This document shows, piece by piece, positions 5,826 through 59,817 of a stretch of 64,000 nucleotides of DNA. A program made the position numbers and the translations under genes. The first letter of the stretch is position 1, and the number at the start of each line of letters is the position of its first letter. The stretch is taken from assembly GCA_041690355.1 (NCBI GenBank), contig JAWLHK010000006.1, forward strand, positions 1 through 64,000, read 5' to 3'. A model generated the notes under the pieces. That model did not search any database and had not been told where the DNA came from. It worked only from the letters and a program-made list of their open reading frames with translations. This DNA comes from a bacterium (lineage in GTDB: Bacteria; J088; JAWLBW01).

Positions 5826-7724
5826 TCAGGGCCTCGTGGCGGCGAGGGGGAACAGGGCCGTCGCTAGGTCGCCGGCGCCGGCTTCGGTGAGATGCGCGGA
5901 ATCCCAGGCATACGGTACGACCTTATTCCCGTGGAGAAGGAGCGTCCGGCATCCGTCTTCGGCGCAGAGGTGGCGGGCCGGTTGCAGGAACGCCGCGGTT
6001 CCGCCTATGATCGACTCGAGCGCCGCATCCGCGGCCAGAACTTCCCCCAGTCGCTCGGCGGCCAGGCGCTTTTCCACGTGAGTTTCCTCCAGGCCTACGC
6101 CGCGGCGCACGAGGGTCGTCGGAAGGTCGGGGCTCCACTGGGGAACACCGCCCACTACCGAAATCCGTGTCGTGGGCGAGACCATCCGGATTCGATCGAT
6201 CGTCTCTGCGAGCGCGGGAAGCCGGTTCCGATAATAGATCCAGGCGGCATGCAGCACGACCGTCTCGGGCCGGGTCTGCTCGATGACGGCAAGCACGTGC
6301 TCGTTGATCGTCGCACAGAACGGACGCGCGGGGATCGGTTCGCCGAGCAGGGGAGGGCATCCGCTCGCCGTAAGCTGGCCCAGATCCGCACGGCTCATGC
6401 GCAACCCGGCGGCAAGTGCGGCGGCGTGAGAATCGCCCCACATCAGCATGCCTCCGCCGCCGGAGGGAAGGCACTCGGGCGCGAAGGCCGTAAACTCCTG
6501 CTCGGGCCGCAGAAAGCAGGCCCCTTCGCGGTAGGCTTCCGCGCGCGGATAATCGCGCCAGGCGAGCACCTCCCGCTGTGCGTCGGTGAGCCGGGAGGCG
6601 AAGCCGTCGGCCGCATGCCCCCAGGCGCCCAGGAGAAGGAACGAGATGCTGGCGGTTGCCGCCCCGGCGAACACGGTGCGGCGATCGATGCCTGTCCCGC
6701 GGCGGAACGGCTTTTCGCGGAACGGCTTTTCGACGAAGCGCCAGGTCAGGTAGGCCAGCGGCAGGGTCAGCGCGCAGAGCAGCGCCAGGAGCGCCGGCGG
6801 CGGCTCGCCCGGGCTCTGGTAGCGGGCAAAGGCGAGCAGCGGTTGATGCCAGAGATAGGCGCTGTAGCTGATCAGCCCAATGCCCGTGAAGACGCGATGG
6901 CCCAGAAGTTCGCCCGCCAGGTTCCCGGGCCCGGCCCCGAGAATCACGAGCACCGTACCCGCTGTCGGCACGAGGGCGGGGAGGCCCGGAAACGGGGTCC
7001 CCTCGTCGAAGACGGCGATGGCGAACGCGATGAGCGACAGCCCGGCGATGCCCAGCGCGGCCCGGATCCGCGGCGGGAGGGGCGGGGAGCCGTTGCGGAG
7101 GTAAAAGGCCGCCAGCGCGCCGAGCAGGATCTCCCAGCCGCGCGTGGGCAGGAGGTAGAAGGCGGCGGCGGGCCGATGTTCCGCAGCCCAGTGGGCGAGG
7201 CCGAGACTGCCCAACGTGATGCCGAGCAATCCAAGCGCCACCCGCCTCCGGCCGAGGCGCCACGTGAGCAGAAGAAAGAGGGGAAACAGCACGTAGTACT
7301 GCTCCTCGACCGCGAGGCTCCACGTGTGCAGGAGCGGCTTCAGCTCGGCCGCGGGGTCGAAGTAGCCGCTCTGCTGCCAGAACAGGATGTTCGACGAGAA
7401 CGTCGCCACGGCCGCGACGCTCTGGGCAAAGGCCTGCATGTCGCCCGGCATCAGCCACAGCCACGCGAACGGCAGCGACACGGCCATGACGAAGAAGAGG
7501 GCCGGCAGAATGCGTCTCGCCCGCCGCTCATAGAACGCGGCCAGACTGAACCGGCCCGTCTCCAGATCGGCCAGGAGCAGGGAGGTAATCAGGTATCCGC
7601 TGATGACGAAGAAGACGTCGACGCCGACGAAGCCGCCGCCGAAGGCCGCGAAGCCCGCGTGGTAGAGGATGACGGGAACCACCGCGACCGCCCGCAATCC
7701 GTCGATTTCAGCACGATACTGCAA
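5826..7724 (-). CDS. Acyltransferase_3 plus SGNH domain O-acyltransferase (OafA/YrhL-like)
   Basis: YRAEIDGLRAVAV, GGFVGVDVFFVISGYLIT, HTWSLAVEEQYY, GDSHA, DSAHLT. Confidence 0.92.
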   Translation of the reverse strand: MQYRAEIDGLRAVAVVPVILYHAGFAAFGGGFVGVDVFFVISGYLITSLLLADLETGRFSLAAFYERRARRILPALFFVMAVSLPFAWLWLMPGDMQAFAQSVAAVATFSSNILFWQQSGYFDPAAELKPLLHTWSLAVEEQYYVLFPLFLLLTWRLGRRRVALGLLGITLGSLGLAHWAAEHRPAAAFYLLPTRGWEILLGALAAFYLRNGSPPLPPRIRAALGIAGLSLIAFAIAVFDEGTPFPGLPALVPTAGTVLVILGAGPGNLAGELLGHRVFTGIGLISYSAYLWHQPLLAFARYQSPGEPPPALLALLCALTLPLAYLTWRFVEKPFREKPFRRGTGIDRRTVFAGAATASISFLLLGAWGHAADGFASRLTDAQREVLAWRDYPRAEAYREGACFLRPEQEFTAFAPECLPSGGGGMLMWGDSHAAALAAGLRMSRADLGQLTASGCPPLLGEPIPARPFCATINEHVLAVIEQTRPETVVLHAAWIYYRNRLPALAETIDRIRMVSPTTRISVVGGVPQWSPDLPTTLVRRGVGLEETHVEKRLAAERLGEVLAADAALESIIGGTAAFLQPARHLCAEDGCRTLLLHGNKVVPYAWDSAHLTEAGAGDLATALFPLAATRP

Positions 7725-15634: not shown

Positions 15635-15982
15635 TTGTATAAACCGCTCCCCGAAGTACGAAAATTCAGTCGGGCCCCGCTTGCGACCCGCGTCAACTGC
15701 CTGGGCCCCGGCACGTTTTTCTCCGACTTCACGATCAACGTGAGCGAGGGGGGGATGATGCTGCAGGCCATCAGCGAGGTGCGTCCCGGCACCGAGCTCG
15801 AGGTCCAGTTCTCCATTCCCGGTTCGGGCAAGGTCATCAAGGCGGTCGCCGAGGTGGTCTGGACCCGCAAGAACCCGCGCGGAGAGGCCCAGATCGGCGT
15901 CGGTCTGGGCGTGCGCTTCAAACGCATTGAACGCGACGAGCAGGCGACCATCCGCCGCTTCGTCGAAACGCAGTCGGCCTGA
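15635..15982 (+). CDS. Stand-alone PilZ domain protein
   Basis: RKFSR (RxxxR), NVSEGG, AEVVW, GVRF. Confidence 0.85.
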   Translation: MYKPLPEVRKFSRAPLATRVNCLGPGTFFSDFTINVSEGGMMLQAISEVRPGTELEVQFSIPGSGKVIKAVAEVVWTRKNPRGEAQIGVGLGVRFKRIERDEQATIRRFVETQSA

Positions 15983-16538: not shown

Positions 16539-17348
16539 ATGTCTTCGCGAACCCTGTTCGTGCTCAGCGACAGCACCGGTTCGACCGCCGAAAAGGTGAC
16601 CCGCGCCGCCGTCATGCAGTTCTCCGACGCCGACGTGCGCATCCGCCGCTTTCCCAACATCCGCACCGAGGCCGCCCTGCGCCGCGCCCTCGAGCTCGCC
16701 CGCGACGAAGACGCGCTCGTCGTGCACACCATCGGGTTGCGCACCCTGCGCGATCTCGCCAATTACGAAACCGAGCGGCAGGGCATTCAGGCGCTCGACC
16801 TGCTCGGACCGCTGCTCACGAAGCTCTCGACCTACCTGGGACGCGCCCCGTACAACCTGCCGGGCCTTCTGCACCAGCTCGACGAAGACTACTTTCACCG
16901 GGTCGATGCCGTCGAGTTCGCCGTGCGCCACGACGACGGCATGGGCATCGATACGATTCAAGGCGCCGATCTCATTCTCGCCGGCGTGAGCCGCACCTCG
17001 AAGACCCCCCTGAGCATGTACCTCGCGCACCTCGGCTACCGCGTGGGCAACGTGCCCATCGTTCCCGGAATTCCCCCGCCCGAACAGCTGCTCACGGCGC
17101 CGAAAGAGAAGGTCTTCGGCCTCATCATCCGCCCCGAGTCGCTCGTGCGGGTGCGCGAAGAGCGCCTGCGCAAACTGGGGGTCCAGAAAAAGACCAGTTA
17201 CGTGGATGGGCGGTCCATTCAGCAGGAGCTCGCCCAGGCGCGCAGGCTGTATGAGGAACAGGGGTGGCGCGTCATCGACGTGAGCGGCAAGGCGGTCGAA
17301 GAGGTCGCCACCGAGCTCATGACCCACCTCGGGGCGCACGAAGGCTGA
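16539..17348 (+). CDS. ppsR: PEP synthase/PPDK regulatory protein (DUF299 kinase/pyrophosphorylase)
   Basis: SDSTGSTAE, HDDG, GVSRTSKTPLSMYLA, N-V-P, VEEVA. Confidence 0.93.
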   Translation: MSSRTLFVLSDSTGSTAEKVTRAAVMQFSDADVRIRRFPNIRTEAALRRALELARDEDALVVHTIGLRTLRDLANYETERQGIQALDLLGPLLTKLSTYLGRAPYNLPGLLHQLDEDYFHRVDAVEFAVRHDDGMGIDTIQGADLILAGVSRTSKTPLSMYLAHLGYRVGNVPIVPGIPPPEQLLTAPKEKVFGLIIRPESLVRVREERLRKLGVQKKTSYVDGRSIQQELAQARRLYEEQGWRVIDVSGKAVEEVATELMTHLGAHEG

Positions 17349-21150: not shown

Positions 21151-21972
21151 GTGGAAGCCTATGAAATCCGTCTGCGTGCCGCGTTGCGTGAGGCCGGCTC
21201 GGTGCTCGTGACCCTCTCCGGTGGAGTCGACAGCTCGCTGCTCGCGCGCATCGCCCATGAGGAGCTGGGCGAGCGTGCCGCCGCGCTCACGGCGGTCGGC
21301 GCTGCGCTCTCGGCGCGCGAGCTGGAAGACTGCCGGCGCATCGCCGCCGAGATCGGCATCCGTCATTTCGCCGTCGACTCGCGCGAAATCGACGATCCCG
21401 ACTACCGGGCCAATCCGGTCAACCGCTGCTACTTCTGCAAGACCGAGCTGTACGGGCTGGCTGCCGGCAAAGCCCGCGAGCTCGGCTTCGCGCGTCTGGC
21501 CGCGGGGATCAACCGCGACGACCTGGGTGACCACCGTCCCGGGATCGTCGCCGCCCGGGAGCACGACGTGCTCATGCCGTACGTCGAGGCGCGCATGGGC
21601 AAGCAGGAGATCCGCGCTGTCGCCCGCCGCATCGGGCTCAGCGTGGCCGAAAAGCCCGCCGCCGCCTGCCTGGCCAGCCGCATCCCTTACGGGCTCGGCG
21701 TCACCGAAGAGCGCCTGCGCCGCATCGAGCAGTGCGAGAACGTGCTCAAGGATCTCGGCTTCGCCCAGTGCCGGGTGCGCCTGCACGACAAGGTGGCGCG
21801 CATCGAAGTGCCTCCCGCCATGCTTCTGCACCTGCTCGAGCATCGGGAACGGATCGTCGAAAGTTTCCGCGGCGCCGGCTTCAGCTACGTGACGCTCGAT
21901 CTGGAGGGCTTTCGCAGCGGCAGCCTGAATGCCGGGCTCCCGCAGGCGGAGACCGGAATCCACCATGGCTGA
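21151..21972 (+). CDS. larE: LarE-family ATP-dependent (PP-loop) sulfur transferase
   Basis: [56 protein letters not shown] start at 21151. Confidence 0.85.
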   Translation: MEAYEIRLRAALREAGSVLVTLSGGVDSSLLARIAHEELGERAAALTAVGAALSARELEDCRRIAAEIGIRHFAVDSREIDDPDYRANPVNRCYFCKTELYGLAAGKARELGFARLAAGINRDDLGDHRPGIVAAREHDVLMPYVEARMGKQEIRAVARRIGLSVAEKPAAACLASRIPYGLGVTEERLRRIEQCENVLKDLGFAQCRVRLHDKVARIEVPPAMLLHLLEHRERIVESFRGAGFSYVTLDLEGFRSGSLNAGLPQAETGIHHG

Positions 21973-22171
21973 GCGCGATCGGCAGCCGGGGGGCGGCCCG
22001 CTGCCGTTTCCGACTTCGGCCTGTCACGGCTGCCGGCACATGGTGCTGGTGGGCAACCGGTGCGGTAGCCGCTTTCTGCAGTGCCGGGCGGCCGCGCAGT
22101 CGTTCTACCCGCCTCAGCCGGTGGGCGATTGCGCGTTGCGCTTGCCTGCATCCCCCTCGGGCGGCGGATAA
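21965..22171 (+). CDS. Small Cys-rich hypothetical protein (68 aa)
   Basis: ATG overlaps the larE stop; CHGCRH...GSRFLQC...YPPQPVGDC, 5 Cys. Confidence 0.6.
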   Translation: MAERDRQPGGGPLPFPTSACHGCRHMVLVGNRCGSRFLQCRAAAQSFYPPQPVGDCALRLPASPSGGG

Positions 22172-22572
22172 GCCCAGGTCTCGCGGAACCCGCCCAGGAA
22201 CTCCGCATCCTCCCAGAGCGGCTCGCCGTTCAGCGTGAGCCATGCATGCCCCGTAACCCCGTTGCGATCCGGTTTGACCCCCATGTGGAACCGGACGTTG
22301 AACCCGCGGCCGGTCAGGTGCAGAAAGCGCAGCAGCGACAGCTTCAGGCAGTTGCCCATGTTCAGGTAGGGGAGCTGATAGACCACCATTTCGGAGAGTC
22401 GCCGGATGCGTTCGGCATCGGTCCACCGCCGGGCATAGCGGCGCCCGGTCGGCGTCATGCGCGCCATGAGCCCGTCGAGGGGGGCGCGGTCGAACATCAC
22501 GCTCAGATAGACCAGCTCGCCCGCCATCCGGGCGACCGTGGGGAGATCGCGAACCACATGCATGCTTTTCAT
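22114..22572 (-). CDS. Lasso peptide B2-type leader peptidase (transglutaminase-like)
   Basis: GNCLKLSLL (catalytic Cys), FHMGV, GHAWL (catalytic His); ~150 aa; alternative start 22563. Confidence 0.87.
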   Translation of the reverse strand: MKSMHVVRDLPTVARMAGELVYLSVMFDRAPLDGLMARMTPTGRRYARRWTDAERIRRLSEMVVYQLPYLNMGNCLKLSLLRFLHLTGRGFNVRFHMGVKPDRNGVTGHAWLTLNGEPLWEDAEFLGGFRETWAYPPPEGDAGKRNAQSPTG

Positions 22573-22611
22573 CTTGCCGAATCCCGGGCGGATAGTCAAT
22601 TTGATAAGAGC

Positions 22612-22641
22612 TTGACGAATTGGAAAGCCGAGTGCCAGAAT
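22612..22641 (+). promoter_or_regulatory. Putative sigma70 promoter for the RRE-precursor unit
   Basis: TTGACG-N18-CAGAAT with TG extended -10, in an AT-richer divergent intergenic region. Confidence 0.45.
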
Positions 22642-22670
22642 GGGGATAGAAACCGAACGGGGAGGCCGGC

Positions 22671-22943
22671 ATGGGCTATCGCATCCATCCATCAGTGTTG
22701 TTCACCGATCTGGAAGACGGCACGAGCGTGCTGCTGCACATGGACAGCAAGTTCTATTTCACGCTGAACGAGTCGGGCACGGTCATCTGGCGCGCACTCA
22801 TGGAGCGTGAGGGTGCGACGGCCGAGGATCTCGCCCGCAGCCTCGCCGCCACCACGTTCAGTGTCGAAGAAGAAACGCTGCGGAACGACATCGACAGCAT
22901 GTTCCGCGAAATGGTCGGCGAAGATATCCTGGTTGAGGAGTGA
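22671..22943 (+). CDS. PqqD family RiPP recognition element (lasso B1-type)
   Basis: 90 aa; DGTSVLLHMDSKFYFTLNESGTVIW...EDL...F...DI...GEDIL pattern; GGAGG RBS. Confidence 0.9.
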   Translation: MGYRIHPSVLFTDLEDGTSVLLHMDSKFYFTLNESGTVIWRALMEREGATAEDLARSLAATTFSVEEETLRNDIDSMFREMVGEDILVEE

Positions 22944-22946
22944 GCC

Positions 22947-23084
22947 ATGGCGAAACGTAACTACAGTCAGCCGTCGTTCGCCCGGTACCGCCCCGTGCGC
23001 GACGTGACCCTGCTGACGCAGTGCTGCCCGTTCGATGAAGAGCCGGTCGATCCCAAGCGGGGCCACGCCGTCTTTTCGGGCTGA
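22947..23084 (+). CDS. RiPP precursor peptide with lasso-type leader (45 aa, absent from ORF track)
   Basis: Manual translation MAKRNYSQPSFARYRPVRDVTLLTQCCPFDEEPVDPKRGHAVFSG; GAGGAG RBS 6 nt upstream; YxxPxF and Thr at the lasso leader spacing; followed by a terminator. Confidence 0.85.
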   Translation: MAKRNYSQPSFARYRPVRDVTLLTQCCPFDEEPVDPKRGHAVFSG

Positions 23085-23108
23085 GCGCGCAGACATCGAT
23101 TGTTTGAG

Positions 23109-23148
23109 AGAGGCCCGCCGGTCATCCGGCGGGCCTCTTTTCTTTCTT
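23109..23148 (+). terminator. Rho-independent terminator after the precursor
   Basis: 13-bp perfect stem AGAGGCCCGCCGG/CCGGCGGGCCTCT, TCAT loop, T-rich tail. Confidence 0.88.
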
Positions 23149-23240
23149 CGGCGTGCCCTCGGGGAAACTGGATTTTTTCTCAATCATTGTGCTATGTTAT
23201 ACGGGGCCCGCCTGCCGCCCGCCCCGGATCCCGACCGCTT

Positions 23241-24977
23241 ATGAGCGACGACGCTTTCGACACCTCCGAACTCATCGACGATTTCGTCGACGACGCCCGC
23301 GTTCACCTGGGGCTTCTCGACGACGCGCTCCTGCGCTTCGAGGCCTCGGTCGAGGCCGGGCGCACCGACCGGAGCGTTTTCGCGAGCATCCTCGGCGCCC
23401 TGCACACGCTCAAGGGCAATGCCGGCATGATGGGCTTCGGCGGTATCCAGCACGCCGTGCACGAACTCGAGACGGTCATCAAGAAGATTACGTCCGAGGG
23501 CATTGCGGTCACCCGCGCCGGCGTCGACGCCCTCTTCGCCATTGCCGCGCTCCTGCACGGGGCCGTCGCCGGCCTTTCGGCCCAGCGGCATGAGACCGAA
23601 ACCTTCGCGCGCCTCGAGGGGCTGCTGGCCACCGTGATTGCGGGGGGCGACGCGGCCCCCGATGCGCCGGCCCCGGAAAGGCAGGGGAATGCTGCGCAGG
23701 GAAATGCCGCGCAGGGAAATGCCGCGCAGGTCGAGTCGGTGGCGGCTGAACCGGCGGTGGCCGAACCGGTCGGGCCGGCGGGGCTCGGGGGCGAGACGCA
23801 GACCATCAAAATCGATTTCAAACGTCTCGACCGGCTGCTGAATCTTGTCGGCGAGCTCGTCATGTACCGCACCTCGCTGAACCAGGTGCAGACCGACCTC
23901 GTGCACCGCGGCGCCGACCTCGTCGCCGGCCGCGAACTGAGCGACGTCTCGCAGCTCATCGGTAAGACGGTGACCGAGCTGCAGGAAGCCATCATGGAGG
24001 CCCGCCTGCTTCCGATGCGCACGGTGCTCCATCCGTTCCCCCGGCTGGTGCGCGACATCGCCCGCAAGCAGGGTAAGAAGGTGACCCTGCACCTGCGGGG
24101 CGCCGAAACCGAGCTCGACAAGACGGTCATCGACAAGATCGGCGAACCGCTGCTGCACCTGGTGCGCAATGCGGTCGATCACGGCATCGAGCTTCCCGAT
24201 CAGCGCCGGGGCGAGGGCAAGACCGAGACGGGCAACCTGACCATCTCGGCCGCGCAGGAGTCGAACAGCATCATCATCACCGTCGAAGACGACGGCCGCG
24301 GGCTCGACGCGAAGAAGATCCTCGAGAAGGCGCGCCGCATCGGCCTCGTCGACCACGACCGCAAGATGGCCGAACAGGAGATCTTCGAGCTCATTTTCTC
24401 GCCCGGCTTCAGCACCGCCGACCAGGTGACCGAAATCAGCGGACGCGGCGTGGGCATGGACGTCGTGCGCGCGGCCATCGCCGGCCTGGGCGGCGTCATC
24501 GAACTGGATACGATCGCCCATCTGGGCACGAAATTCACGGTCAAACTGCCCCTTACGCTGGCCATCATCACCGCCCTGCTCGTGCGCGTCGGCGAAGAGT
24601 CGTACGCCGTCCCCATCACCCATGTGCTCGAGAGCGTGCGCTACGACGCCGCTGCGGTGCACGAGGTCAACGATCGCCAGGTGCTGCGCCTTCGCGACCG
24701 CATCCTGCCGCTTGCCGATCTGCGCGCGCTGTTTCAGCTTCCCGAACGGGATGCGGGCGACCAGGCTTACGTCGTCGTGCTCGGGCGCGGCGAGCGGCGG
24801 GTCGGCCTCATCGTCGACGGCCTGCTCGGGCAGATGGAAATCGTCATCAAGGGCATCGACGAGGTCCTCGGCGCCACGCCGTACATCGCCGGTGCTTCGG
24901 TGCTCGGCGACGGGCGCGTCATTCTCATCGTCGACGTAGCCCGGCTGCTCGCCGGGGCCGACATGGTGGTGACCTGA
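23241..24977 (+). CDS. cheA: Chemotaxis histidine kinase CheA (no obvious P2 or REC domain)
   Basis: Hpt LHTLKG, LNLVGELV, HLVRNAVDHGIE, PGFSTA..SGRGVGMDVV, C-terminal CheW-like P5. Confidence 0.95.
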   Translation: MSDDAFDTSELIDDFVDDARVHLGLLDDALLRFEASVEAGRTDRSVFASILGALHTLKGNAGMMGFGGIQHAVHELETVIKKITSEGIAVTRAGVDALFAIAALLHGAVAGLSAQRHETETFARLEGLLATVIAGGDAAPDAPAPERQGNAAQGNAAQGNAAQVESVAAEPAVAEPVGPAGLGGETQTIKIDFKRLDRLLNLVGELVMYRTSLNQVQTDLVHRGADLVAGRELSDVSQLIGKTVTELQEAIMEARLLPMRTVLHPFPRLVRDIARKQGKKVTLHLRGAETELDKTVIDKIGEPLLHLVRNAVDHGIELPDQRRGEGKTETGNLTISAAQESNSIIITVEDDGRGLDAKKILEKARRIGLVDHDRKMAEQEIFELIFSPGFSTADQVTEISGRGVGMDVVRAAIAGLGGVIELDTIAHLGTKFTVKLPLTLAIITALLVRVGEESYAVPITHVLESVRYDAAAVHEVNDRQVLRLRDRILPLADLRALFQLPERDAGDQAYVVVLGRGERRVGLIVDGLLGQMEIVIKGIDEVLGATPYIAGASVLGDGRVILIVDVARLLAGADMVVT

Positions 24978-25780
24978 TGTACGAAGCGTTCTTCGGCCTG
25001 CGCGAAAAAGCGTTTTCCAAGACGCCCGATCCACGGTTTCTCTTTCTCTCCGAAGCCCACCAGGAGGCACTGGCGCAGCTCGAGTACGCCGTCGAAGAGA
25101 AGGAGATTGCCGTGCTGACCGGCGAGATCGGCACCGGCAAGACGCTGCTTTCGCGTGTGCTCATGGACCGCCTCGACGAGCGGTACGAGATCGCCAACGT
25201 GCTGCACCCGGGGCTGAGCACGACGGCCTTTCTGCGCACGGTCGCCCAGGAGCTCGGCGTCGGCGAGCCGGCGCGCACGAAGCAGGGGATCGTGGATCAG
25301 CTGCAGCAGCGCTTTCTCGCCCTGCACGACGAGGCGCGCACGCCGGTCATCCTCATCGACGAATCGCAGCTCATCCGCGGCAAGGACGTCTTCGACGAGA
25401 TCCGCCTGCTCACGAACTTCCAGCTCGACACCGAGAACCTGGTCGCCTTCGTGCTCATCGGCCAGCCCGAGCTCGCCAAACGCCTGCGCAAGCCGGCCTA
25501 CCGCCCGCTCACGCAGCGCATCGGGGCCGAATTTCACCTGGGGCCGCTCGATGGCGAGGCAACCTCGGGGTACCTGCGCCACCGCCTGCGCACGGCGGGC
25601 GCCGAACGCGACATTTTCGACGACGGAGCCTGCGCCGCCGTGCACGAGCGCACGGGCGGGACGCCGCGAATCGTCAACAACCTGGCTACCCAGTGCCTGC
25701 TCGAAGGTCTGGCGGCCGAAGAACCGGTCATCACGCGTCCGCTCGTGCAGCGGGTGGCCGACAGCATGCGGTTTCTCTGA
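24977..25780 (+). CDS. ExeA/GspA-family AAA ATPase (ATPase domain only)
   Basis: MYEAFFGLREKAFSKTPDPRF, Walker A GEIGTGKT, Walker B IDESQ, LIGQPEL, GGTPRIVN. Confidence 0.9.
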   Translation: MYEAFFGLREKAFSKTPDPRFLFLSEAHQEALAQLEYAVEEKEIAVLTGEIGTGKTLLSRVLMDRLDERYEIANVLHPGLSTTAFLRTVAQELGVGEPARTKQGIVDQLQQRFLALHDEARTPVILIDESQLIRGKDVFDEIRLLTNFQLDTENLVAFVLIGQPELAKRLRKPAYRPLTQRIGAEFHLGPLDGEATSGYLRHRLRTAGAERDIFDDGACAAVHERTGGTPRIVNNLATQCLLEGLAAEEPVITRPLVQRVADSMRFL

Positions 25781-26877
25781 TGGGCCGGCTGAGCGAAGCG
25801 CGAAAGAAGGCCAGGGCGAAGAAGGGGGGCAATGACGGCGAAACGCCTGTGACGCCTGGCGCCGACGCGCCTGCGCCGTCTTCCGCCGAAAGCGTCGTTC
25901 CCGCATCCGTCTCCGCGCCGGCCGCCCCGTCCCCGGAACCCGAGTCGGCTGCCTCCGCTCCCGAGCCCGATGTGCACCAGGCCGACGACGAGGCTGCCTG
26001 GATCGCCAGAGCGCTGGCCGAAGCCGAGGCCGAAATCGGCGGCGCCCCCGCCGTGGCCGAGGCCGCCGAAGGGAAATCCGACGGACGCATCGTGCTGCCC
26101 GCCAGCGGGCTGGCCGACGACATCCTCGCCGCGTGGAGCGCCGAACAGGACGAAAGCGATACGGGGGCAGGCGCGGCCGTTTCTCCGGCGGCCGGCGAAG
26201 AATCCTTTTCCTTCGACGACGTTTTCGACGACGCGGCCGGCCTGCAGGGGTCGGTGCTCGAAGCGCTGCGCGAAGAAGCGGCCCCCGGGGCGCTGCGCTC
26301 GATGCCGAGCAGCGGTCTGGCCGAAGACATCCTGCAGTACGTCGACGCCAAGCCGGCGCAGCGTTCGTCGCTGAGCCTCGACGAGATTCACGAATTCGAA
26401 AACTTCTTCGAAGACGAACAGCAGACCGAGTTCGCCCAGTACGTGCTGTTCTCCATCGGCCGCGAAACCTTCGGCGTCGACATCGCGCATGTCCGGGAGA
26501 TCATCCGCGCGCCGCGCATCACCCGCGTTCCCAACGCCGACCGGGCCGTGACCGGCGTCTTCAACCTGCGCGGCCGCATCGTGCCCCTGTTCGTGCTGCG
26601 CAGCCTGCTGAACCTGCCGTCGCGCGCGCTCGATCGCGACAGCAGGGTCATGGTCTTCGAGTCGGGCGCCCGCCATGTGGGCATGCTCATCGACGGCGTA
26701 CGCGAAGTCGCGCGCGTCGACGTGCGCGACATCGAACCGCCGCCCGAAGAAATCACGAGCGCCGTCGACCGCAATCTGGTCACGGCGGTCGCCCGGTACC
26801 GAGACCGGGTGATCTTTCTGCTCGACATGGATTCCGTTCTCGGATTCAATCGCCCCCCCATGAGTCACGCGAGGTAG
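25780..26877 (+). CDS. cheW: CheW with long acidic/low-complexity N-terminal extension
   Basis: C-terminal [40 protein letters not shown] coupling to the upstream gene. Confidence 0.88.
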
Positions 26878-26879
26878 CC

Positions 26880-28808
26880 GTGAAGCTTCGAAACAAGATG
26901 CCCTTGTATACCTTCATCACGGTCATGGCCGTCGGCATTGTGCTGGCCATCGCCGTGCGGATTATCGCGCACGACAAGCTGTACGAAGAAGCCCGCGGCA
27001 AGGCGACGGCCCTCTCGGGAGCCCTGGCCTACAACGCCCGGTACGGACTGCTCACGCAGGATTCAGTCATCCTCTCGGACCTGATGCGCGGGGTCATCTC
27101 GGTGCAGGAGATCGAGTTCTCGCTCTTCGCCGATGCCGAGGGCAAGGTGCTCGCGCGGCAGCTCGAACCCGGGGTCGAACTCGACGAGGCGGCGGTGCTG
27201 CAGGGACTCGCGGGGAGCGGGGAGACGTCACGCATCGAAATCGACTCGCACCTCATCGTGCGCACCCCCGTGTTCAGCGAGGTTTACGATCCGTTCGCCG
27301 AGAACATGCAGGGCGGCGTCGATGCCGACGCCCCGAAGAAACCGATCGGCTACGCCGTCGTGGGTATCACGCTGGCCGGCGTCGCCGAGCGGGTCGGTTC
27401 CATGATGACGCTCATCCTGCTCATCGTCGCGGCCTCGGCCGTCGTCTTCGCGGCCTTCCAGAGCTACCTGGCCCGCCGGGAGCTGCTCCCCCTCGACGAT
27501 ATGGAACTGGCCGCCTCGCGCATCGCCGACGGTGACTTCACGGCGCGCGTGAATGTGAGCGGCAACGATGAAATCGGCCGTCTGGGCGACATCTTCAACC
27601 GCATGGCCATGAGTCTCGAGAACATCGTCGGCAGCGTGCAGACGACCTCCGACAAGGTCGCCGCCGAAGCCGAACGCATCAGCCGGGCGGCCCGCGACGT
27701 GCTGCAGGGATCGAAGGTGCAGGCCCAGGCTTCGGAAGAGACCAGCAGCTCGATGGAAGAAATCGCGGTCCAGATCATTACCGTCGCCGGCAACGCCGAG
27801 CGCCTGAGCGCCAACGTGGGCGACACCTCGAGCTCCATCGAAGAGATGGGGGCGAGCATCGAGCAGATCTCGAGGAACACGGACCTGCTCGCGCGCAGCG
27901 TCGAGGTCGCCAGCAGCACCGTCGAAGAGATGCTCGGCAGCATCAACGAGGTCGCGACGAACGTCGAAGAAGCCGAAAAGACCAGCGGTCGGGCGGCCGA
28001 AGAGGCCGCCGTCAGCGGAAACTCGGTCCTGCGCACGGTCGAGCGCATGCGCAAGATCGCCGGCACGATGGAAGGGACGGCCGGCGTCATTCAGACGCTG
28101 GGCGAGCGCGGGGGCGAGATTGAGAAGATCATCGGCGTCATCGAAGACATCGCCGACCAGACCAATCTGCTGGCCCTGAACGCGGCCATCGAAGCTGCGC
28201 GCGCCGGTGACGCCGGGCGCGGGTTCGCGGTCGTCGCCGACGAGGTGCGCAAACTGGCCGAGCGGTCGGTGGCGGCCACCAAGGAGATCGGGCGCGTCAT
28301 CAGCGAGGTCGTGCGCGACACCGAGAAGGCCGTGCTCGCCTCGCGCGAGGGGGTCGAAGAGACCAAGGCCGGCATCCGCATCGCAGACGAGGCCGTGGCC
28401 GCCATCGAGCGCATCCGCGAGAGCGTCGACGGCACGTCGCGCATCATGCGCGAGATACTCGTCGCCACGCAGGCCCAGCGCGACGCGAGCAAGCACGTCA
28501 CCTCGGCCATGATGGACATGAACCGCATCACCGGCGAAGTCCGGGCGGCGACGGCCGAGCAGGCCCGCGGTTCGGCCCAGATCGTACGCTCGGTCGAGGA
28601 GATGCGCCAGCAGACCGACGAAGTCAAGATGGCGACCGAAGAGCAGAAGCGCGGCGGCGAAATGGTCGTCGCTGCCATCGAGAACATCTCGGCCATCGCC
28701 CGCGACAACCTGCGCGCCATGGAAGAGATGAACACGATCGCCTCGGGCCTCACCGAAGAGAGCGAGAACCTGCGCAACTTCCTGCAGACGCTGCGGGCCA
28801 AGGGCTGA
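26880..28808 (+). CDS. Methyl-accepting chemotaxis protein
   Basis: Two TM helices, HAMP (DEIGRLG..FNRM), [38 protein letters not shown] start. Confidence 0.95.
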
Positions 28809-28827
28809 GCGGGCGGGGAGCGCGTAC

Positions 28828-31080
28828 GTGGCCGTTATGGAATCCGATCCGCGGGATGAAGCCGCCCGCTGCCGGGATGCAGAGGCGCTTGCCGGCCGGC
28901 AGGACGACGAGGCGTTCAACCTGCTGCTCGACGCCGCGCGCGACGAGTCGTGGCGCGTGCGCGAGCGCGCCGTGCGTCTGCTGACGGCTTTTCCGGCACG
29001 GCGGCTCGTCGCCTGCGTGCGCGACACGGTGACGGGTACGCGGGAGCCTTCGCTGCGCAACGTGGCCATGGACGCCCTGGTGCGCCAGGGTGAAGGATCC
29101 GTCGCCGAGGTCGTGACCCTGCTCGCCGAAGAAAACTGGGAGATGCGGCTGCACGGCGCCGTCATGCTGGGTAACATCCGCTCGCCGCTCGCCATCGACG
29201 CGCTCTGCCGGCTGCTCGGCGACGAAGAAGAGAACGTCATTCATGCCGCCGCGGAGTCGCTGGGCGAAATTGGCGATCCGCGGGCGGTTATTCCCCTCAC
29301 CGAGGTGCTGAGCTCGCATGAGTTCTGGTCGCAGTATCCGGCCATCGTGGCCCTGGGCAAGATCGCCCATCACAGCTCGACCGAGCATCTGCTCGCCTAT
29401 CTGAATGACGAGATGCTTGCGCCGGCGGTCGTCGACGCGCTCGGACGGGTAGCCGATCCGCGCGCGCTCACGCCGCTGCTGCAATTGCTTCCCGCCGACG
29501 ATGCGCCCCCCTTTGTTCCGTACCCGCAGCTGATTCGCGCTCTGGTGCGCATCACGGCCGTGGCCGGCGAAAGCTGGACGCTCGCCGATGCCCTGCGCGC
29601 CCCGATGCGCAGAGCGGTGCGCGAGGCGCTGCGCGGCGAAGAGGCCGAGGATCGCATCGCGGCGCTGCTCGTCGCCGGCTGGACGGCCGATGCGGAACTG
29701 ATTCCCGACATGCTGCCGTCGCTCGAGCACGACGGTGAACAGGACGCGGCGGCTCGCGCCCTCTCGGGCATGGGCGAGGCCATCGTGCCCGCCCTCGAGC
29801 CGCTGCTTTCGGCGCCCCTCGCGTCGGTGCGCCGGCTCGCCGTGCAGCTGCTGTCTGCCGCCGGCCATGTGGAGCCGATTCTGCGCCTCATCATCGACCC
29901 CGACGAGGCCGTGCGCATGGAAATCGCGCTGGCGGTCGGCAACAGCGGCCGGGCCGAACTGAGCGAGTACGTGCTCGAGATGCTGCTCGACGAAAGCGAC
30001 GAAGTGCGCAGTGTGGCGCTCGAGGTCATCGCGCGCTTTCAGAGCGACGACCGGGTGCGCGAACAGCTCTATCATCGTCTCGAATACTTTCCCGACGACC
30101 ACCTGCCGACCATTGTCGAGACGCTCGGCCGCCTTGCCGTCGCCGACGCGCTGCCGCGCCTCGAACCGCTGCTGGGCGTCGAGCGTGATCCCGCCGTGCG
30201 CGCGGCCGCGGTGCGGGCGGTGAGCGCCATCGGCGCGGCGGGTGATAAGGCGGCGGCGGCGCGCGACGCCCTCCTGCCGCTGGCCGGCGACGCCGACCCC
30301 GATGTGCGCTACGAGGTGCTGCGCGCGCTCGATCGCTTTCAGGGCGAGGCGGTTTTTGCCGCACTCAGCCGCGGTATCGACGACCCCGAACTTCACTGCG
30401 CCTACGCCGCCGTCAGCGCGCTCGGCCACGTCGGCGACGAACGGGCCGCGCCGCTGCTCGAACGCGCCGCCCTGCGGGCCGACGCCGACATGGGGCTGCG
30501 CGTTGCGGCCGTGGGGGCGCTCGGGCGCATTCAGGCCGAAAGCTCCACCTCTGCGCTGCTCGATCTGCTGGCCGTCGATGACGCCGACGTGCGCCGCGAA
30601 GTGACGCGGGCGCTCAGCCGCATTCCCGGACCCCGGGCGCTCGATGGGCTGCGGCGGGCGGCGGCCGATCCGTTCTGGGGGGTTCGTGCGCTGGCCATCC
30701 GCGCGCTCGCGTCGCGGGGCGAGGCCGGGCGCGAACTGGTGCTCGCCGCCCTGAGCGACGAGGATTCTCTGGTTCGCAAGGCGGGCGTGCGCGGATTGCA
30801 GGAGGCTGGCCTCGCGGCCGTCGATCGACTCATCCCGCTGCTCAGCGACGACGATCTGGAAGAAACGGTGGCCGACACGCTGGCGACCTTCGGGCCGGCC
30901 CTGCTCGAGCGCATCGGCGAGGCGGGCGCCCAGGCAGATCCGGTGGTGCGCATCCGGCTCGCCCGGCTTCTCGGGCGCATCGGGGGCGAGAAGGCCCGCC
31001 GCCAGCTCGATGGATTGTCGCGCGACGCCGTCGCCGAAGTGGCTGCCGTGGCCCAGCGCGAACTGGCGGGAGAAGGCTGA
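28828..31080 (+). CDS. HEAT-repeat (PBS lyase-like) protein
   Basis: Many repeats of D....VR..A..ALG.IGD.RA...L..L across ~750 aa. Confidence 0.9.
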   Translation: MAVMESDPRDEAARCRDAEALAGRQDDEAFNLLLDAARDESWRVRERAVRLLTAFPARRLVACVRDTVTGTREPSLRNVAMDALVRQGEGSVAEVVTLLAEENWEMRLHGAVMLGNIRSPLAIDALCRLLGDEEENVIHAAAESLGEIGDPRAVIPLTEVLSSHEFWSQYPAIVALGKIAHHSSTEHLLAYLNDEMLAPAVVDALGRVADPRALTPLLQLLPADDAPPFVPYPQLIRALVRITAVAGESWTLADALRAPMRRAVREALRGEEAEDRIAALLVAGWTADAELIPDMLPSLEHDGEQDAAARALSGMGEAIVPALEPLLSAPLASVRRLAVQLLSAAGHVEPILRLIIDPDEAVRMEIALAVGNSGRAELSEYVLEMLLDESDEVRSVALEVIARFQSDDRVREQLYHRLEYFPDDHLPTIVETLGRLAVADALPRLEPLLGVERDPAVRAAAVRAVSAIGAAGDKAAAARDALLPLAGDADPDVRYEVLRALDRFQGEAVFAALSRGIDDPELHCAYAAVSALGHVGDERAAPLLERAALRADADMGLRVAAVGALGRIQAESSTSALLDLLAVDDADVRREVTRALSRIPGPRALDGLRRAAADPFWGVRALAIRALASRGEAGRELVLAALSDEDSLVRKAGVRGLQEAGLAAVDRLIPLLSDDDLEETVADTLATFGPALLERIGEAGAQADPVVRIRLARLLGRIGGEKARRQLDGLSRDAVAEVAAVAQRELAGEG

Positions 31081-31081
31081 G

Positions 31082-31933
31082 ATGTATTATTACCCGTCTA
31101 CCCGCGAACTGCCGATGACCGAGGAGGAGTTCCGCCTCCTGCGCGACTTTGTGCGCCAGCAGTTCGGCCTGTTCTATGACGATTCGAAGCTGCAGCTGTT
31201 CAAGAACCGGCTGCTCCCGCGGGTCGCCGCGCTCGGTCTGACGACCTTCGACGAATACTACCACTACCTCCGCTTCAATCCCGGCCGCGCCGAAGAGATG
31301 CGCAAGATGGTCAGCCACCTGACCAACAACGAGACTTACTTCTTCCGCGAGATGAAGCAGCTCGAACTGTTCCGCGACCAGCTGCTCCCCACCGTGGCCG
31401 CCCGCCGCAAGGGTACCATCCGGGTGCTGAGCGCGGGCTGCTCGAGCGGCGAAGAGCCGTATACGCTGGCCATGCTGGCGCACGAGAAGCTCGGGCTCTT
31501 CCCCCGCAGCCGCGTCGAGATCGTCGGCATCGACGTCGACGACAAGGTGCTCGAAAAGGCGCGTCTGGGGCAGTACTTCAAGTCAAGCTTCCGCGCGACC
31601 GACCCACTGGTGATCCACCGCTACTTCCAGGCCCAGGGCGAGGCCCGCGTCGTGCGTGAGTCCATCCGCAGCAGCGTGCGGTTCGAGTGGGCGAACCTGG
31701 TCGACTTCTCGACGCTGCGCGGCCTGGGGCAGTTCGACATCGTTCTCTGCCGCAACGTCATCATCTACTTCGAGGATCCGACCATACGCAAGGTGGTCGA
31801 AGGGTTCTACCGGCTGCTGGCCGAAGACGGCTACCTGCTGCTGGGACACTCCGAATCGCTTGCGCGCATCACCGATCTCTTCGAGGCAGAGCGCCACCCC
31901 GGAACGTTCGCCTACCGCAAGGTGCTGCTGTGA
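31082..31933 (+). CDS. cheR: Chemotaxis methyltransferase CheR
   Basis: TNNETYFFRE, SAGCSSGEEPY, CRNVIIYF, GHSE. Confidence 0.95.
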   Translation: MYYYPSTRELPMTEEEFRLLRDFVRQQFGLFYDDSKLQLFKNRLLPRVAALGLTTFDEYYHYLRFNPGRAEEMRKMVSHLTNNETYFFREMKQLELFRDQLLPTVAARRKGTIRVLSAGCSSGEEPYTLAMLAHEKLGLFPRSRVEIVGIDVDDKVLEKARLGQYFKSSFRATDPLVIHRYFQAQGEARVVRESIRSSVRFEWANLVDFSTLRGLGQFDIVLCRNVIIYFEDPTIRKVVEGFYRLLAEDGYLLLGHSESLARITDLFEAERHPGTFAYRKVLL

Positions 31934-33021
31934 ACCCGGTGCGCGTGCTCATCGTCGACGATTCGGCCTTCATGCGCAAGGCAATCCGGCGCATGCTCGA
32001 GGCCGACCCCGAGATCGAGGTCGTCGGCGTGGCCCGCGACGGCGCCGAAGGGGTGCGCCTGGCCCGCGAGCTCGTGCCCGACCTGATCACGCTCGATTTT
32101 CAGATGCCCGACATGAACGGCCTTCGGGTCATCGAAGAGATTCTGGCCTGGCGCTCGATACCCATTCTGATGCTCTCGTCGTTCACGGCCGAGGGCTCTG
32201 AGGTCACTCTGCGTGCCTTCGAGCTGGGCGCGCTCGACTACATTGACAAGTCGAGCGTCAAGACGCAGATGGACATCGTCAACATCGCGCCGATGCTGCG
32301 CACGAAGGTGAAGACCCTGGCCGGCATCGGCCACGAGAAGCTGGCGCGCGCCCGCGTGGCCGCCGTGCCGCAGGCTCCGCCGCCGCCGTTCGAGGCGTTC
32401 GAGGCGTCGGTGGGCGAGGGGACGTCGGCCTACGATCTGGTCGCCATCGGCTCGTCGACGGGGGGCCCGTCGGCGTTGCAGGCGATTCTGGCGGGGCTCC
32501 CGCGCGGGTTTCCGTGCCCGATCGTCATCGTGCAGCACATGCCGGCGGGGTTTACCGGACCGCTGGCCGATCGGCTGAACTCCATCTGCGAGATCCGGGT
32601 GCGCGAAGGGGCCAACGGCGACGAGCTGGCTCCGGGCACGGCCTACATCGCCCCGGCCGGCTCGCACGTGCTCATCGCCCGTCGCGGCAACGGCCTGCAG
32701 ATGCTGCTCAGCCAGAAGCCCGAAGACGCGCTGCACCGGCCGAGCGTCGATGTCCTGTTCGCGAGCGTGGCCCGTACCGTGGGCGCGGCGGCGGTCGGTG
32801 TCCTGCTCACGGGCATGGGCAAGGACGGCGCCCTCGGTCTGAAGACGCTGCGCGATCGCGGCGCCGCGACCATTGCCCAGGACGAAACCACGAGCGTCGT
32901 CTGGGGCATGCCCCGGGTCGCCGTCGAAATCGGGGCGGCGCGCGAAGTGCTCCCGCTCGGCGACATACGCGGACGCATTCTCGCCCTGGCGCGCGAACGG
33001 CGGACCGCGCCTGCTCACTGA
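31930..33021 (+). CDS. cheB: Chemotaxis methylesterase CheB (REC plus esterase)
   Basis: VLIVDDSAFMR, GSSTGGP, QHMP, RPSVD, LTGMGKDGA. Confidence 0.96.
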   Translation: MNPVRVLIVDDSAFMRKAIRRMLEADPEIEVVGVARDGAEGVRLARELVPDLITLDFQMPDMNGLRVIEEILAWRSIPILMLSSFTAEGSEVTLRAFELGALDYIDKSSVKTQMDIVNIAPMLRTKVKTLAGIGHEKLARARVAAVPQAPPPPFEAFEASVGEGTSAYDLVAIGSSTGGPSALQAILAGLPRGFPCPIVIVQHMPAGFTGPLADRLNSICEIRVREGANGDELAPGTAYIAPAGSHVLIARRGNGLQMLLSQKPEDALHRPSVDVLFASVARTVGAAAVGVLLTGMGKDGALGLKTLRDRGAATIAQDETTSVVWGMPRVAVEIGAAREVLPLGDIRGRILALARERRTAPAH

Positions 33022-35183: not shown

Positions 35184-36317
35184 ATGGCACTTTCAGGCAG
35201 CCTCCGCACAATGGAAATTTCGGAGCTGTTGCAATGGATTGCAAACAGCCAGAAAACCGGTGTGCTCACCCTGCAACGCGACCGGACGACCAAGCGTATC
35301 GGGTTCGGCGACGGCAAGGTGGTCTCGGTCGAGTCCAACGATCCGGCTGAACATCTGGGGCAGTACCTTCTGGCCTACGGCAAGATCGACGCCGAGAGCC
35401 TGAAACGGGCCTTCTCGGTGCAGGAGAAGACGGGACTGCGCCTCGGCGAGATTCTCGTGGAGGTGAACCTGCTCAAGGAGGCCGACCTCGAAGACTCGCT
35501 GCGCATTCAGGCCGTGGAGATTCTCTACAACCTGTTTCTCTGGAGCGAAGAGGGGTCGTTCACGTTCGACGACGAAGCCGAGCCGCTGCGGGCCGGGCTC
35601 GACCTCGAGCTCTCGGGCATCATCATGGAAGGGGTCTACCGCTACGACGAGTGGAAGCGGTACCGCGAGGTGTTTCCCTCCGACAACGTGGCCATCGAGT
35701 CGGCCGGCGCCTGGGAACCCGCTTCGGACGAAGATCGCCTGCTTTCGCGCCTGATCGCGCAGCGCAAGAGTATCGGGGAGATCTGCTACGAGTTTCGCAC
35801 CAGCAAGTTCAACACCTACAGCCGTCTGTACGAGCTGTACGAAAAGGGGGCCGTGCGCGTTTCGCGGCAGGAGGCCCCGTCGGCTCCCGACGCCGTGACC
35901 GCGCCGGTCGCTCCGGGCGCTGCGGGCGCCAAGGTTCCCGATCTGCATGATCTCTTCGACGAGGCCTTCGCGGCCGTGCGCGAGCGGCGCTACGAACAGG
36001 CGCTGCCGCTGCTCGAGACGGTGCAGCGGCGCGGCCGCGACGAAGGCGCCGCCCAGGACATCATCGACAAGGCAGAGCGCACGTACCGCGACATCCTGAT
36101 TACGCGCTTCATCGATCCCCACAAGATCCCCAAGGTGACCCTTCCGCCCAAGCTGCTGACCGAGAAGAAGTTCTCGTCGGCCGAGGGCTATCTCATCAGC
36201 CGCATCGACGGCACCTGGGACGTCGCCTCGATCATCCGCATCAGCCCGATTCCCGAGAGCGAGGCGCTGGGGATCTTCAAGAAGTTCATCGACGACAACA
36301 TCATCGTTCTGACCTGA
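35184..36317 (+). CDS. DUF4388 domain protein with MshEN-like motifs and TPR-like helix
   Basis: LSGSLRTMEISELLQWI..KTGVL; LGQYLL..RLGEILV; LFLW.EG.F.F; EGYLISRIDG. Confidence 0.8.
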   Translation: MALSGSLRTMEISELLQWIANSQKTGVLTLQRDRTTKRIGFGDGKVVSVESNDPAEHLGQYLLAYGKIDAESLKRAFSVQEKTGLRLGEILVEVNLLKEADLEDSLRIQAVEILYNLFLWSEEGSFTFDDEAEPLRAGLDLELSGIIMEGVYRYDEWKRYREVFPSDNVAIESAGAWEPASDEDRLLSRLIAQRKSIGEICYEFRTSKFNTYSRLYELYEKGAVRVSRQEAPSAPDAVTAPVAPGAAGAKVPDLHDLFDEAFAAVRERRYEQALPLLETVQRRGRDEGAAQDIIDKAERTYRDILITRFIDPHKIPKVTLPPKLLTEKKFSSAEGYLISRIDGTWDVASIIRISPIPESEALGIFKKFIDDNIIVLT

Positions 36318-59749: not shown

Positions 59750-59817
59750 CCGGCGGCCCCGAAGATTTGCGAGCGTGGCACCGTTGCTGTACAGTAAGCG
59801 CACGGAGGTATGACGTT

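Follow-up and report, generated by a model that had tools for sequence, protein, structure and literature searches.

Lasso peptides are defined by a macrolactam that is made by an asparagine-synthetase-type cyclase. In split-B lasso clusters (such as the TbiB1 and TfuB1 systems), leader handling is divided between a discrete PqqD-type recognition element for peptides that are made by ribosomes and modified after translation (RiPPs), here RRE or B1, and a transglutaminase-fold cysteine protease, B2. Excerpts of the lasso literature state that B1 and B2 suffice for precursor cleavage in vitro, that the leader motif YxxPxL spans positions -17 to -12 with a Thr usual at -2, and that the ring acceptor is an Asp or Glu at core position 7-9 (PMC10368454). 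The RRE motif is given as [Y/W]xxPx[L/V/I/F/A] in excerpted text on the linear polyphosphorylated peptides (LPPs), linear products made with an RRE and leader of lasso type but with no cyclase (PMC13381572). Lasso-type leader handling therefore exists outside lasso biosynthesis, and the RRE-Finder survey places both peptidase and cyclase alongside only about 4,000 out of some 8,000 discrete RREs of lasso type (PMC7470986). Here we describe a locus in 64,000 nucleotides of bacterial DNA (GTDB lineage Bacteria; J088; JAWLBW01; assembly GCA_041690355.1, contig JAWLHK010000006.1, positions 1 to 64,000 of the forward strand; this whole stretch is hereafter the window), in which an open reading frame (ORF) for a 45-residue peptide lies beside genes for a PqqD-family RRE and a B2-like protease. 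We propose, with about even confidence, that the locus is a lasso-derived, cyclase-less RiPP cassette that would release a linear 23-residue Cys-Cys peptide. The cassette would comprise three genes: the PqqD-type RRE (B1), a co-transcribed precursor, and a divergent B2 cysteine protease. No B1/B2/precursor cassette without a cyclase is described in the full-text literature searched, whose coverage leaves out subscription-only papers.

Peptide gene, leader and predicted core

Positions 22947-23084 (+) translate, exactly as the sequence-only reading had given it, into MAKRNYSQPSFARYRPVRDVTLLTQCCPFDEEPVDPKRGHAVFSG followed by a stop (45 residues). Because the G+C content of the window is 66.7%, long shadow ORFs are common and an open frame by itself means little. 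The ORF is nevertheless a real gene and not a chance frame: it has three homologues, a low ratio of non-synonymous to synonymous substitution rates (dN/dS), a ribosome-binding-type site, flanking promoter-like and terminator-like signals, and a matching layout at an orthologous locus. The exact 45-residue protein is already in the protein collection searched, so it has been predicted by some gene caller. A Shine-Dalgarno-like GAGGAG read in the sequence (22935..22940, +) lies 6 nt 5' of the peptide ATG, and the PqqD gene stops at 22941-22943, with the peptide ATG 3 nt beyond. Upstream of the PqqD-peptide pair is a promoter-like site identified by consensus match (TTGACG-18-CAGAAT with TG, 22612..22641, +; one site found versus 0.3 expected from shuffles). 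Starting 22 nt past the peptide stop is an intrinsic-terminator-like hairpin with a T-rich tail (23106..23151, +; hairpin proper 23106-23141; stem 16 bp with 11 GC pairs, loop 4 nt). Together, the GAGGAG, the spacing to PqqD, the sigma-70-like site and the hairpin suggest a unit in the order promoter, PqqD, peptide, terminator, which the terminator-like hairpin appears to close ahead of cheA. An Rfam scan of 21800-23400 gave two sub-threshold matches only, both judged chance; the Thr_leader match at 23074-23143 (+; 26.7 bits versus a gathering score of 55) corresponds to the terminator hairpin plus T-run.

The peptide belongs to a very small family. A word-based search of 5.8 billion proteins identified two relatives of 43 and 44 residues (P0002 with 74% and P0003 with 71% identity), and a further 44-residue relative, P0010, came from an exhaustive profile search with HMMER over 1.84 billion cluster representatives. 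Among the four matches of the profile search at E <= 0.001, only P0010 was a real relative; P0011 and P0013 were discarded as long repetitive proteins, and P0012 (978 residues, six stretches) was set aside for its length. The family totals four peptides and five close B2 proteins in these collections of 5.8 and 1.8 billion proteins. Tyr6, Pro9, the block P-V-R-D-V-T-L-L-T and the motif C-C-P-F are identical in all four peptides, and the C-terminus reads P-[KR]-R-G-H-A-V-F-[SA]-G across the family, with the terminal Gly invariant (4/4). The vicinal pair Cys26-Cys27 (23022-23027, +), to which the sequence-only reading had drawn attention, is thus present in every member; the vicinal disulfide or metal binding which that reading envisaged for the pair is speculative. 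The same full-text literature contains no paper that brings together the terms "vicinal disulfide" and "lasso peptide".

Genomic context is visible at a single orthologous locus, an 8.9-kb contig of a metagenome-assembled genome (L001); P0003 is on a 1.7-kb contig. Over 43 aligned codons, the peptide genes of the window and L001 differ by 18.5 synonymous and 11.5 non-synonymous changes (dN/dS 0.11), and the DNA of the invariant peptide block differs at third positions only. The corresponding dN/dS values are 0.06 for the PqqD gene and 0.32 for the B2 gene, with dS about 1.2 or more. All three cassette genes are under purifying selection, and these substitution patterns indicate that the peptide ORF is probably translated and constrained. 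Two minus-strand ORFs that overlap the peptide gene (22692-23183 and 22967-23125) were set aside, since the substitutions in L001 are third-position changes in the plus frame. The layout of L001 matches that of the window, with a promoter-like site (TTGACA-16-CAGAAT) in the equivalent place, a GAGGAG preceding an ATGA in which the stop of PqqD overlaps the start of the peptide, and a terminator hairpin with TTTTTT at 5424-5398. The small ORF 3' of the orthologous RRE gene, on the persistence of which the original prediction had been made to depend, is therefore kept at the one locus where it can be seen.

The leader has the lasso spacing. Relative to Leu23, Tyr6 is at -17, Pro9 at -14, Phe11 at -12 and Thr21 at -2, which bears out the placement of Tyr, Pro and Thr in the sequence-only reading; Phe at -12 is admitted by the published motif [L/V/I/F/A]. 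The YxxPxF ruler and the Thr -2 ruler are independent and agree on a predicted cut between Leu22 and Leu23. Cleavage there would divide the precursor into a leader of residues 1-22 (22947-23012, +) and a predicted core of residues 23-45 (23013-23081, +), LTQCCPFDEEPVDPKRGHAVFSG, of 23 residues; the cores of the homologues have 22. Since a regular-expression search for the leader motif gave many chance matches in all loci, the motif alone is weak and an alignment is the evidence. We aligned the four family members with 10 Nitrospirota precursors, taken from beside the PqqD genes of eight loci, and found Tyr6, Pro9, Asp19 and Thr21 invariant (14/14) and Arg18 kept in at least 90%. A feature search of the ESM Atlas placed the lasso leader families DUF5972 (0.85) and subterisin (0.85 and 0.83) as the nearest named clusters, all below the lead level of 0.9 and hence leads only.

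Counted from Leu23, the core starts with Leu and has Cys4-Cys5, Asp8 and Glu9, as first described. The two proposed acceptors fare differently: position 8 (Asp30 in the window, 23034-23036, +) is acidic throughout, with Asp in the window and Glu in P0002, P0003 and P0010, and so falls at a lasso ring-acceptor position in all four, whereas position 9 is E, Q, Q and E (window, then homologues), Gln in two of the three homologues. A one-residue indel occurs within the family right at the ring-residue position. The alternative cut after Thr24-x25 does yield Cys1 and Glu7 in the window, but the ring position is inconsistent across the family (Glu7 or Glu9 in P0003, Glu9 only in P0002 and P0010). 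We rejected this cut because it fits neither a consistent ring position nor the Tyr/Pro/Phe ruler, which, like the Nitrospirota leader alignment, points to Thr21. Conservation of the C-terminal decapeptide equals or exceeds that of the putative ring, which is unusual for lasso tails; together with C-C-P-F, the decapeptide suggests that the peptide may have a specific partner.

Predicted leader-handling proteins and the search for a cyclase

The PqqD-family protein (90 residues, 22671..22943, +), encoded by a gene that ends 3 nt before the peptide ATG, scores 52.5 bits on PF05402 (cut-off 23.4) and falls under the cut-offs of the NCBIfam lasso PqqD models (45.5 versus 70 and 27.5 versus 80). 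The best solved match of its family profile is the lasso B1 protein TbiB1 (5v1u, E 1.2e-19). The RRE domain is thus present, and leader binding is predicted. A modelled RRE-peptide complex has an interface score (ipSAE) of 0.35, compared with 0.01 for the best of three controls, and passes a mark that 116 out of 157 solved complexes attain, as do 2 out of 215 mismatched pairs; scores at 0.60 or under account for 18 of the passes among those 157 and for both passing mismatches. Model runs, which took our own alignments as input, share at least 91% of their contacts, and the partner has a predicted local distance difference test score (pLDDT) of at least 52. Support from this model is weak, and since like complexes have been solved (TbiB1 with leader, 5v1v), the pass may reflect likeness only. 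These observations agree with the idea of a RiPP-type precursor with a lasso-type leader beside an RRE, the part of the sequence-only reading that the leader rulers and the PqqD protein support.

Divergent from the PqqD gene is the gene for a B2-like transglutaminase-fold cysteine protease (152 residues, 22114..22572, minus). Its frame is open upstream to an ATG at 22692, and the 152-residue form is the one in the protein collection. The protein scores 44.4 bits on PF13471 (Transglut_core3; cut-off 26), which is the family of lasso B2 leader peptidases, and its L001 orthologue reaches 36.6 on NF033537 (lasso_biosyn_B2; cut-off 33). Cys75 and His109 are found throughout the 27 aligned sequences, all of which have Glu at position 121 except one with Asp. 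This family match and the Cys/His/acidic residues identify it as a putative B2 leader peptidase. An AlphaFold2 model of the protein (pLDDT 90.5) had no match among solved structures by fold at E <= 0.001, and there was none by sequence; the top non-significant rows of the fold search were the transglutaminase-fold cysteine proteases 3isr, PeiP and LapG, which fits the superfamily. The window protein is only 22-30% identical to relatives in cyclase-bearing lasso loci.

The lasso product foreseen in the sequence-only reading finds no such support, because the enzyme that defines the class is absent locally. Pfam scans of 52 window ORFs (9 + 29 + 14) and 11 L001 ORFs revealed no Asn_synthase plus GATase architecture, and the sole Asn_synthase match was a 70-residue P-loop stretch of a LarE-type protein. 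Searches by tblastn with two cyclases from related loci had no match at E <= 1e-3 in the window or L001. A hidden Markov model (HMM) of 10 cyclases, compared with all stop-to-stop ORFs of at least 50 residues in the window and L001, recovered PP-loop similarity only, with LarE (15.6 bits), its L001 counterpart, a TilS-like protein and GuaA as best matches. No lasso cyclase was therefore identified within the 64-kb window or the 8.9-kb L001 contig. The scanned window ORFs also include no ATP-binding cassette (ABC) exporter, ATP-grasp, radical S-adenosylmethionine (radical-SAM), NTP_transf_5 or HprK-like kinase gene, no immunity gene and no signal-peptidase family, the peptidase here being of B2 type. 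The only kinase-like neighbour is a phosphoenolpyruvate-synthase regulatory protein (PF03618), 5 kb away.

To place these genes, we compared loci from a scan with the B2 alignment, one genome per species, which gave 23 loci: L001, the orthologue, and 22 distant ones. Of the 22, 13 (12 from Chloroflexota, and L021 from Contendobacter) have a cyclase, in each case no more than 1.8 kb from B2; L022 is truncated at a contig end, and L023 is marginal (E 4e-4) and was left out of counts. In eight Nitrospirota loci, the retrieved flanks (4-10 kb on either side) contain no cyclase. What these loci do carry is PqqD, a kinase related to HprK (about 60 bits, under the model cut-off of 200), NTP_transf_5 and B2, with an MsbA-like ABC exporter in five, and L004 and L006 also carry pairs of ATP-grasp peptide maturases. 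The clusters are located at L004 6167-11699 and 12030-15610, L005 836-6167, L006 5289-10336, L008 5485-10920, L010 6783-12122, L012 1544-6948, L015 9851-13682 and L016 9812-13710. One to three small precursor ORFs lie beside each Nitrospirota PqqD gene. Their leaders align with that of the window peptide in the common pattern Y-x-x-P-x-hydrophobic-x-x-[HYF]-x-x-[LV]-R-D-[IV]-T, and their cores have Ser3-Gly4, no Asp or Glu at positions 7-9 and no Cys-Cys, and are unrelated to the window core. The window leader thus appears to resemble most closely the precursors of these cyclase-less clusters. These loci look like a B2-dependent counterpart of the published LPPs.

A scan of the Chloroflexota loci for lasso-like leader motifs identified no convincing precursor, so the leader comparison covers the Nitrospirota precursors. 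The window PqqD is 23-34% identical to Nitrospirota and 21-26% to Chloroflexota PqqDs, and the PqqD tree has three clades with the nearest clade to the window family not resolved, its one 100/100 split being the stem of the Chloroflexota clade. Several Chloroflexota lasso clusters (L011 2084-6045, L013 3831-8064, L014 9405-12854 and L018 549-4666, with L017 and L019 similar) have additional genes. These encode a 170-230-residue unassigned protein between B2 and the cyclase (L011, L013, L014 and L018), an Exo_endo_phos family protein after the cyclase (L011, L013, L017, L018 and L019), and an upstream radical-SAM enzyme (L011, L013, L014, L017 and L019), which except in L011 has a B12-binding domain.

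Alternative readings and neighbouring genes

The cyclase-less cassette is the reading we favour because the locus contains RRE, B2 and precursor only, because all three genes are under purifying selection, and because there are precedents in the LPPs, the RRE-Finder counts and the in vitro cleavage by B1 and B2. In the proposed pathway, the RRE would bind the leader via Tyr6, Pro9 and Phe11 (-17, -14 and -12) and present the Thr21-Leu22|Leu23 junction to the Cys75/His109/Glu121 site of B2, cleavage by which would free the 23-residue core (22 residues in the homologues). Since no cyclase, kinase, nucleotidyltransferase, ATP-grasp, radical-SAM or ABC exporter gene is nearby, the freed peptide would most likely be linear, save for possible thiol chemistry at the invariant Cys-Cys, and would not be a threaded lasso.

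Several observations weigh against this proposal. The window B2 falls just under the NF033537 cut-off (31.4 versus 33). The B2 tree has three clades in which the join of the window family is weak (55/25 support), and it gives no preference to a grouping of that family with the Nitrospirota clade, which lacks a cyclase, over one with the Chloroflexota clade, which has it. As context is visible at one orthologous locus, the conserved gene order may simply reflect close kinship. The cyclase search extended over one 8.9-kb orthologous contig and the 64 kb of the window, whose contig is at least 256 kb long, and there is no exporter near the cassette for a released peptide. Finally, the acidic core position 8 (4/4), the core length of 22-23 residues and the bulky tail (K, R, H, F) are traits of lasso substrates.

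These last traits, together with leader and B1/B2 proteins of lasso type and the lasso leader families among the ESM Atlas leads, are consistent with a true lasso peptide. In that case B1 and B2 would cut at Leu22|Leu23, and a cyclase encoded elsewhere would close the ring between the amine of Leu1 and Asp8 (or Glu8, as the homologues have) and thread the tail, with the Cys-Cys inside the ring. This explanation is kept alive by the conserved acidic position 8 and by the size of the source contig, at least 256 kb, of which the 64-kb window is a part. We nonetheless consider it unlikely. Neither a cyclase nor a cyclase remnant is present in the window or L001, whereas each of the 13 cyclase-bearing related loci has the gene at most 1.8 kb from B2. 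Further, the ring residue swaps between Asp and Glu in a family of 71-74% identity, with the one-residue indel at that spot, and the closest leader relatives come from cyclase-less clusters whose cores lack Asp/Glu at 7-9.

It is also possible that there is no processed RiPP. The locus could be an unused remnant of a lasso cluster after loss of the cyclase, or the product could be an uncleaved 45-residue small protein, for example a chemotaxis-linked regulator. The lack of a tailoring enzyme, exporter or immunity gene in the scanned ORFs and the tiny size of the family are consistent with this, as is the chemotaxis operon that directly follows in both genomes. Against disuse or a non-RiPP role stand the purifying selection on all three genes (dN/dS 0.11, 0.06 and 0.32 at the divergence given above), the intact catalytic residues of B2 and the RRE-binding and cleavage motifs, which are invariant across the family. 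A terminator also separates the peptide gene from cheA. We regard this explanation as quite improbable. The chemotaxis operon itself (window 23241-33021, +), directly 3' of the terminator, is unusual in its make-up, with the order CheA, an AAA_22 ATPase, CheW with a long N-terminal extension, a methyl-accepting chemotaxis protein, a 750-residue HEAT-repeat protein, CheR and CheB; CheA is also the next gene after the peptide gene in L001.

On its other side the cassette adjoins a LarE-type PP-loop sulfur transferase/ATPase (window 21151-21972, +; TIGR00268, 302 bits versus a cut-off of 150), convergent with B2 and 141 bp from its end; the L001 counterpart (6747-7583, minus; 297 bits) has the same orientation relative to B2. 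LarE enzymes and lasso cyclases both activate carboxylates via a PP-loop. Conceivably, then, LarE might replace the cyclase by adenylating Asp/Glu8 or the C-terminal Gly45, leading to ring closure or a thiocarboxylate; its adjacency to B2 in both genomes with visible context, the shared mode of carboxylate activation and the invariant C-terminal Gly (4/4) would fit. We consider this very improbable and rejected LarE as a disguised cyclase, since its family scores are those of an ordinary LarE and its likeness to cyclases is confined to the P-loop (15.6 bits). It has at least 6,710 homologues at E <= 1e-40, forming a continuum at 50-60% identity in which several are named LarE and come from unrelated phyla, and 12 homologues at 63-73% identity compared with four close B2 relatives. 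Being convergent with B2, the gene is not co-transcribed with it, and as CheA is conserved too, the cassette being bordered by CheA and LarE in both the window and L001, its position next to B2 may reflect synteny alone. No paper in the full-text literature searched links LarE to RiPPs.

LarE is the only carboxylate-activating enzyme near the cassette, its adjacency being probably ordinary synteny, and the 52 scanned window ORFs include no member of the LarA, LarB or LarC families. The PF03618 Kinase-PPPase (about 300 bits; window 16540-17348, +; L001 7684-8616, minus) adjoins LarE in L001. In the window three genes lie between them, for a protein of the bile-acid:sodium symporter family, a response regulator and a PAS/GAF histidine kinase, so these have been inserted or lost between the two genomes. 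Elsewhere in the window are two genes for DUF4388 proteins (35184-36317 and 59767-60801, both +), one of them fused to an MshEN domain, and a gene for a PilZ protein (15635-15982).

If the cyclase-less reading is correct, selection would have preserved leader recognition and cleavage by B1 and B2 as a maturation module in its own right, without cyclase or tailoring enzyme, and the range of cyclase-less linear relatives of lasso peptides, so far the LPPs of Bacillota, would widen to include other phyla and a form that depends on B2. The clusters in Nitrospirota agree with this. Should the LarE explanation be true instead, the locus would represent a RiPP class that couples lasso-type leader handling to LarE chemistry with no asparagine-synthetase-type cyclase. 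On the cyclase-less reading, a lasso-like leader, an RRE, B2 and an acidic position 8 would together not be enough to identify a lasso peptide in genome mining. In this very rare family, the invariant Cys-Cys-Pro-Phe and the nearly invariant decapeptide at the C-terminus point to a specific function.

Comparison with known systems

Split-B lasso clusters (the TbiB1 and TfuB1 systems and Chloroflexota loci such as L002, L007 and L009) share with the window a discrete PqqD-type RRE, the same transglutaminase-fold B2 with Cys/His/acidic residues, and the same YxxPx(hydrophobic) at -17 to -12 with Thr at -2, a core of about 23 residues and Asp/Glu8. They differ in that the window and L001 are without the asparagine-synthetase-type cyclase that related loci have within 1.8 kb of B2. 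The window is also without an ABC exporter, its B2 gene is divergent and not in one operon with the RRE gene, and its core starts with Leu and has the invariant vicinal Cys-Cys at positions 4-5.

The LPPs of Bacillota, as portrayed in the excerpted source, resemble the window in having a lasso-type discrete RRE, a YxxP leader and no macrolactam cyclase, with a linear product inferred (PMC13381572). The window leader consensus continues otherwise, the host phylum differs, and the LPP leader peptidase is SpI-like (SipW-type), a family absent from the 52 scanned window ORFs. The HprK-like kinase, NTP transferase and MsbA-like exporter of LPP clusters were not found in the scanned window ORFs.

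The Nitrospirota clusters share the leader pattern, B2 and PqqD with the window and likewise have no cyclase in the fetched flanks. Unlike the window, they have a kinase and a nucleotidyltransferase, with an exporter in five of the eight, and sometimes ATP-grasp maturases; nor does the B2 tree join the two groups. They resemble the phosphorylated lasso clusters of Bsf and paeninodin type, as these are outlined in excerpts of PMC10368454, minus the cyclase. Among these systems the window cassette is the barest form of lasso-type leader handling, consisting of RRE, B2 and precursor only.

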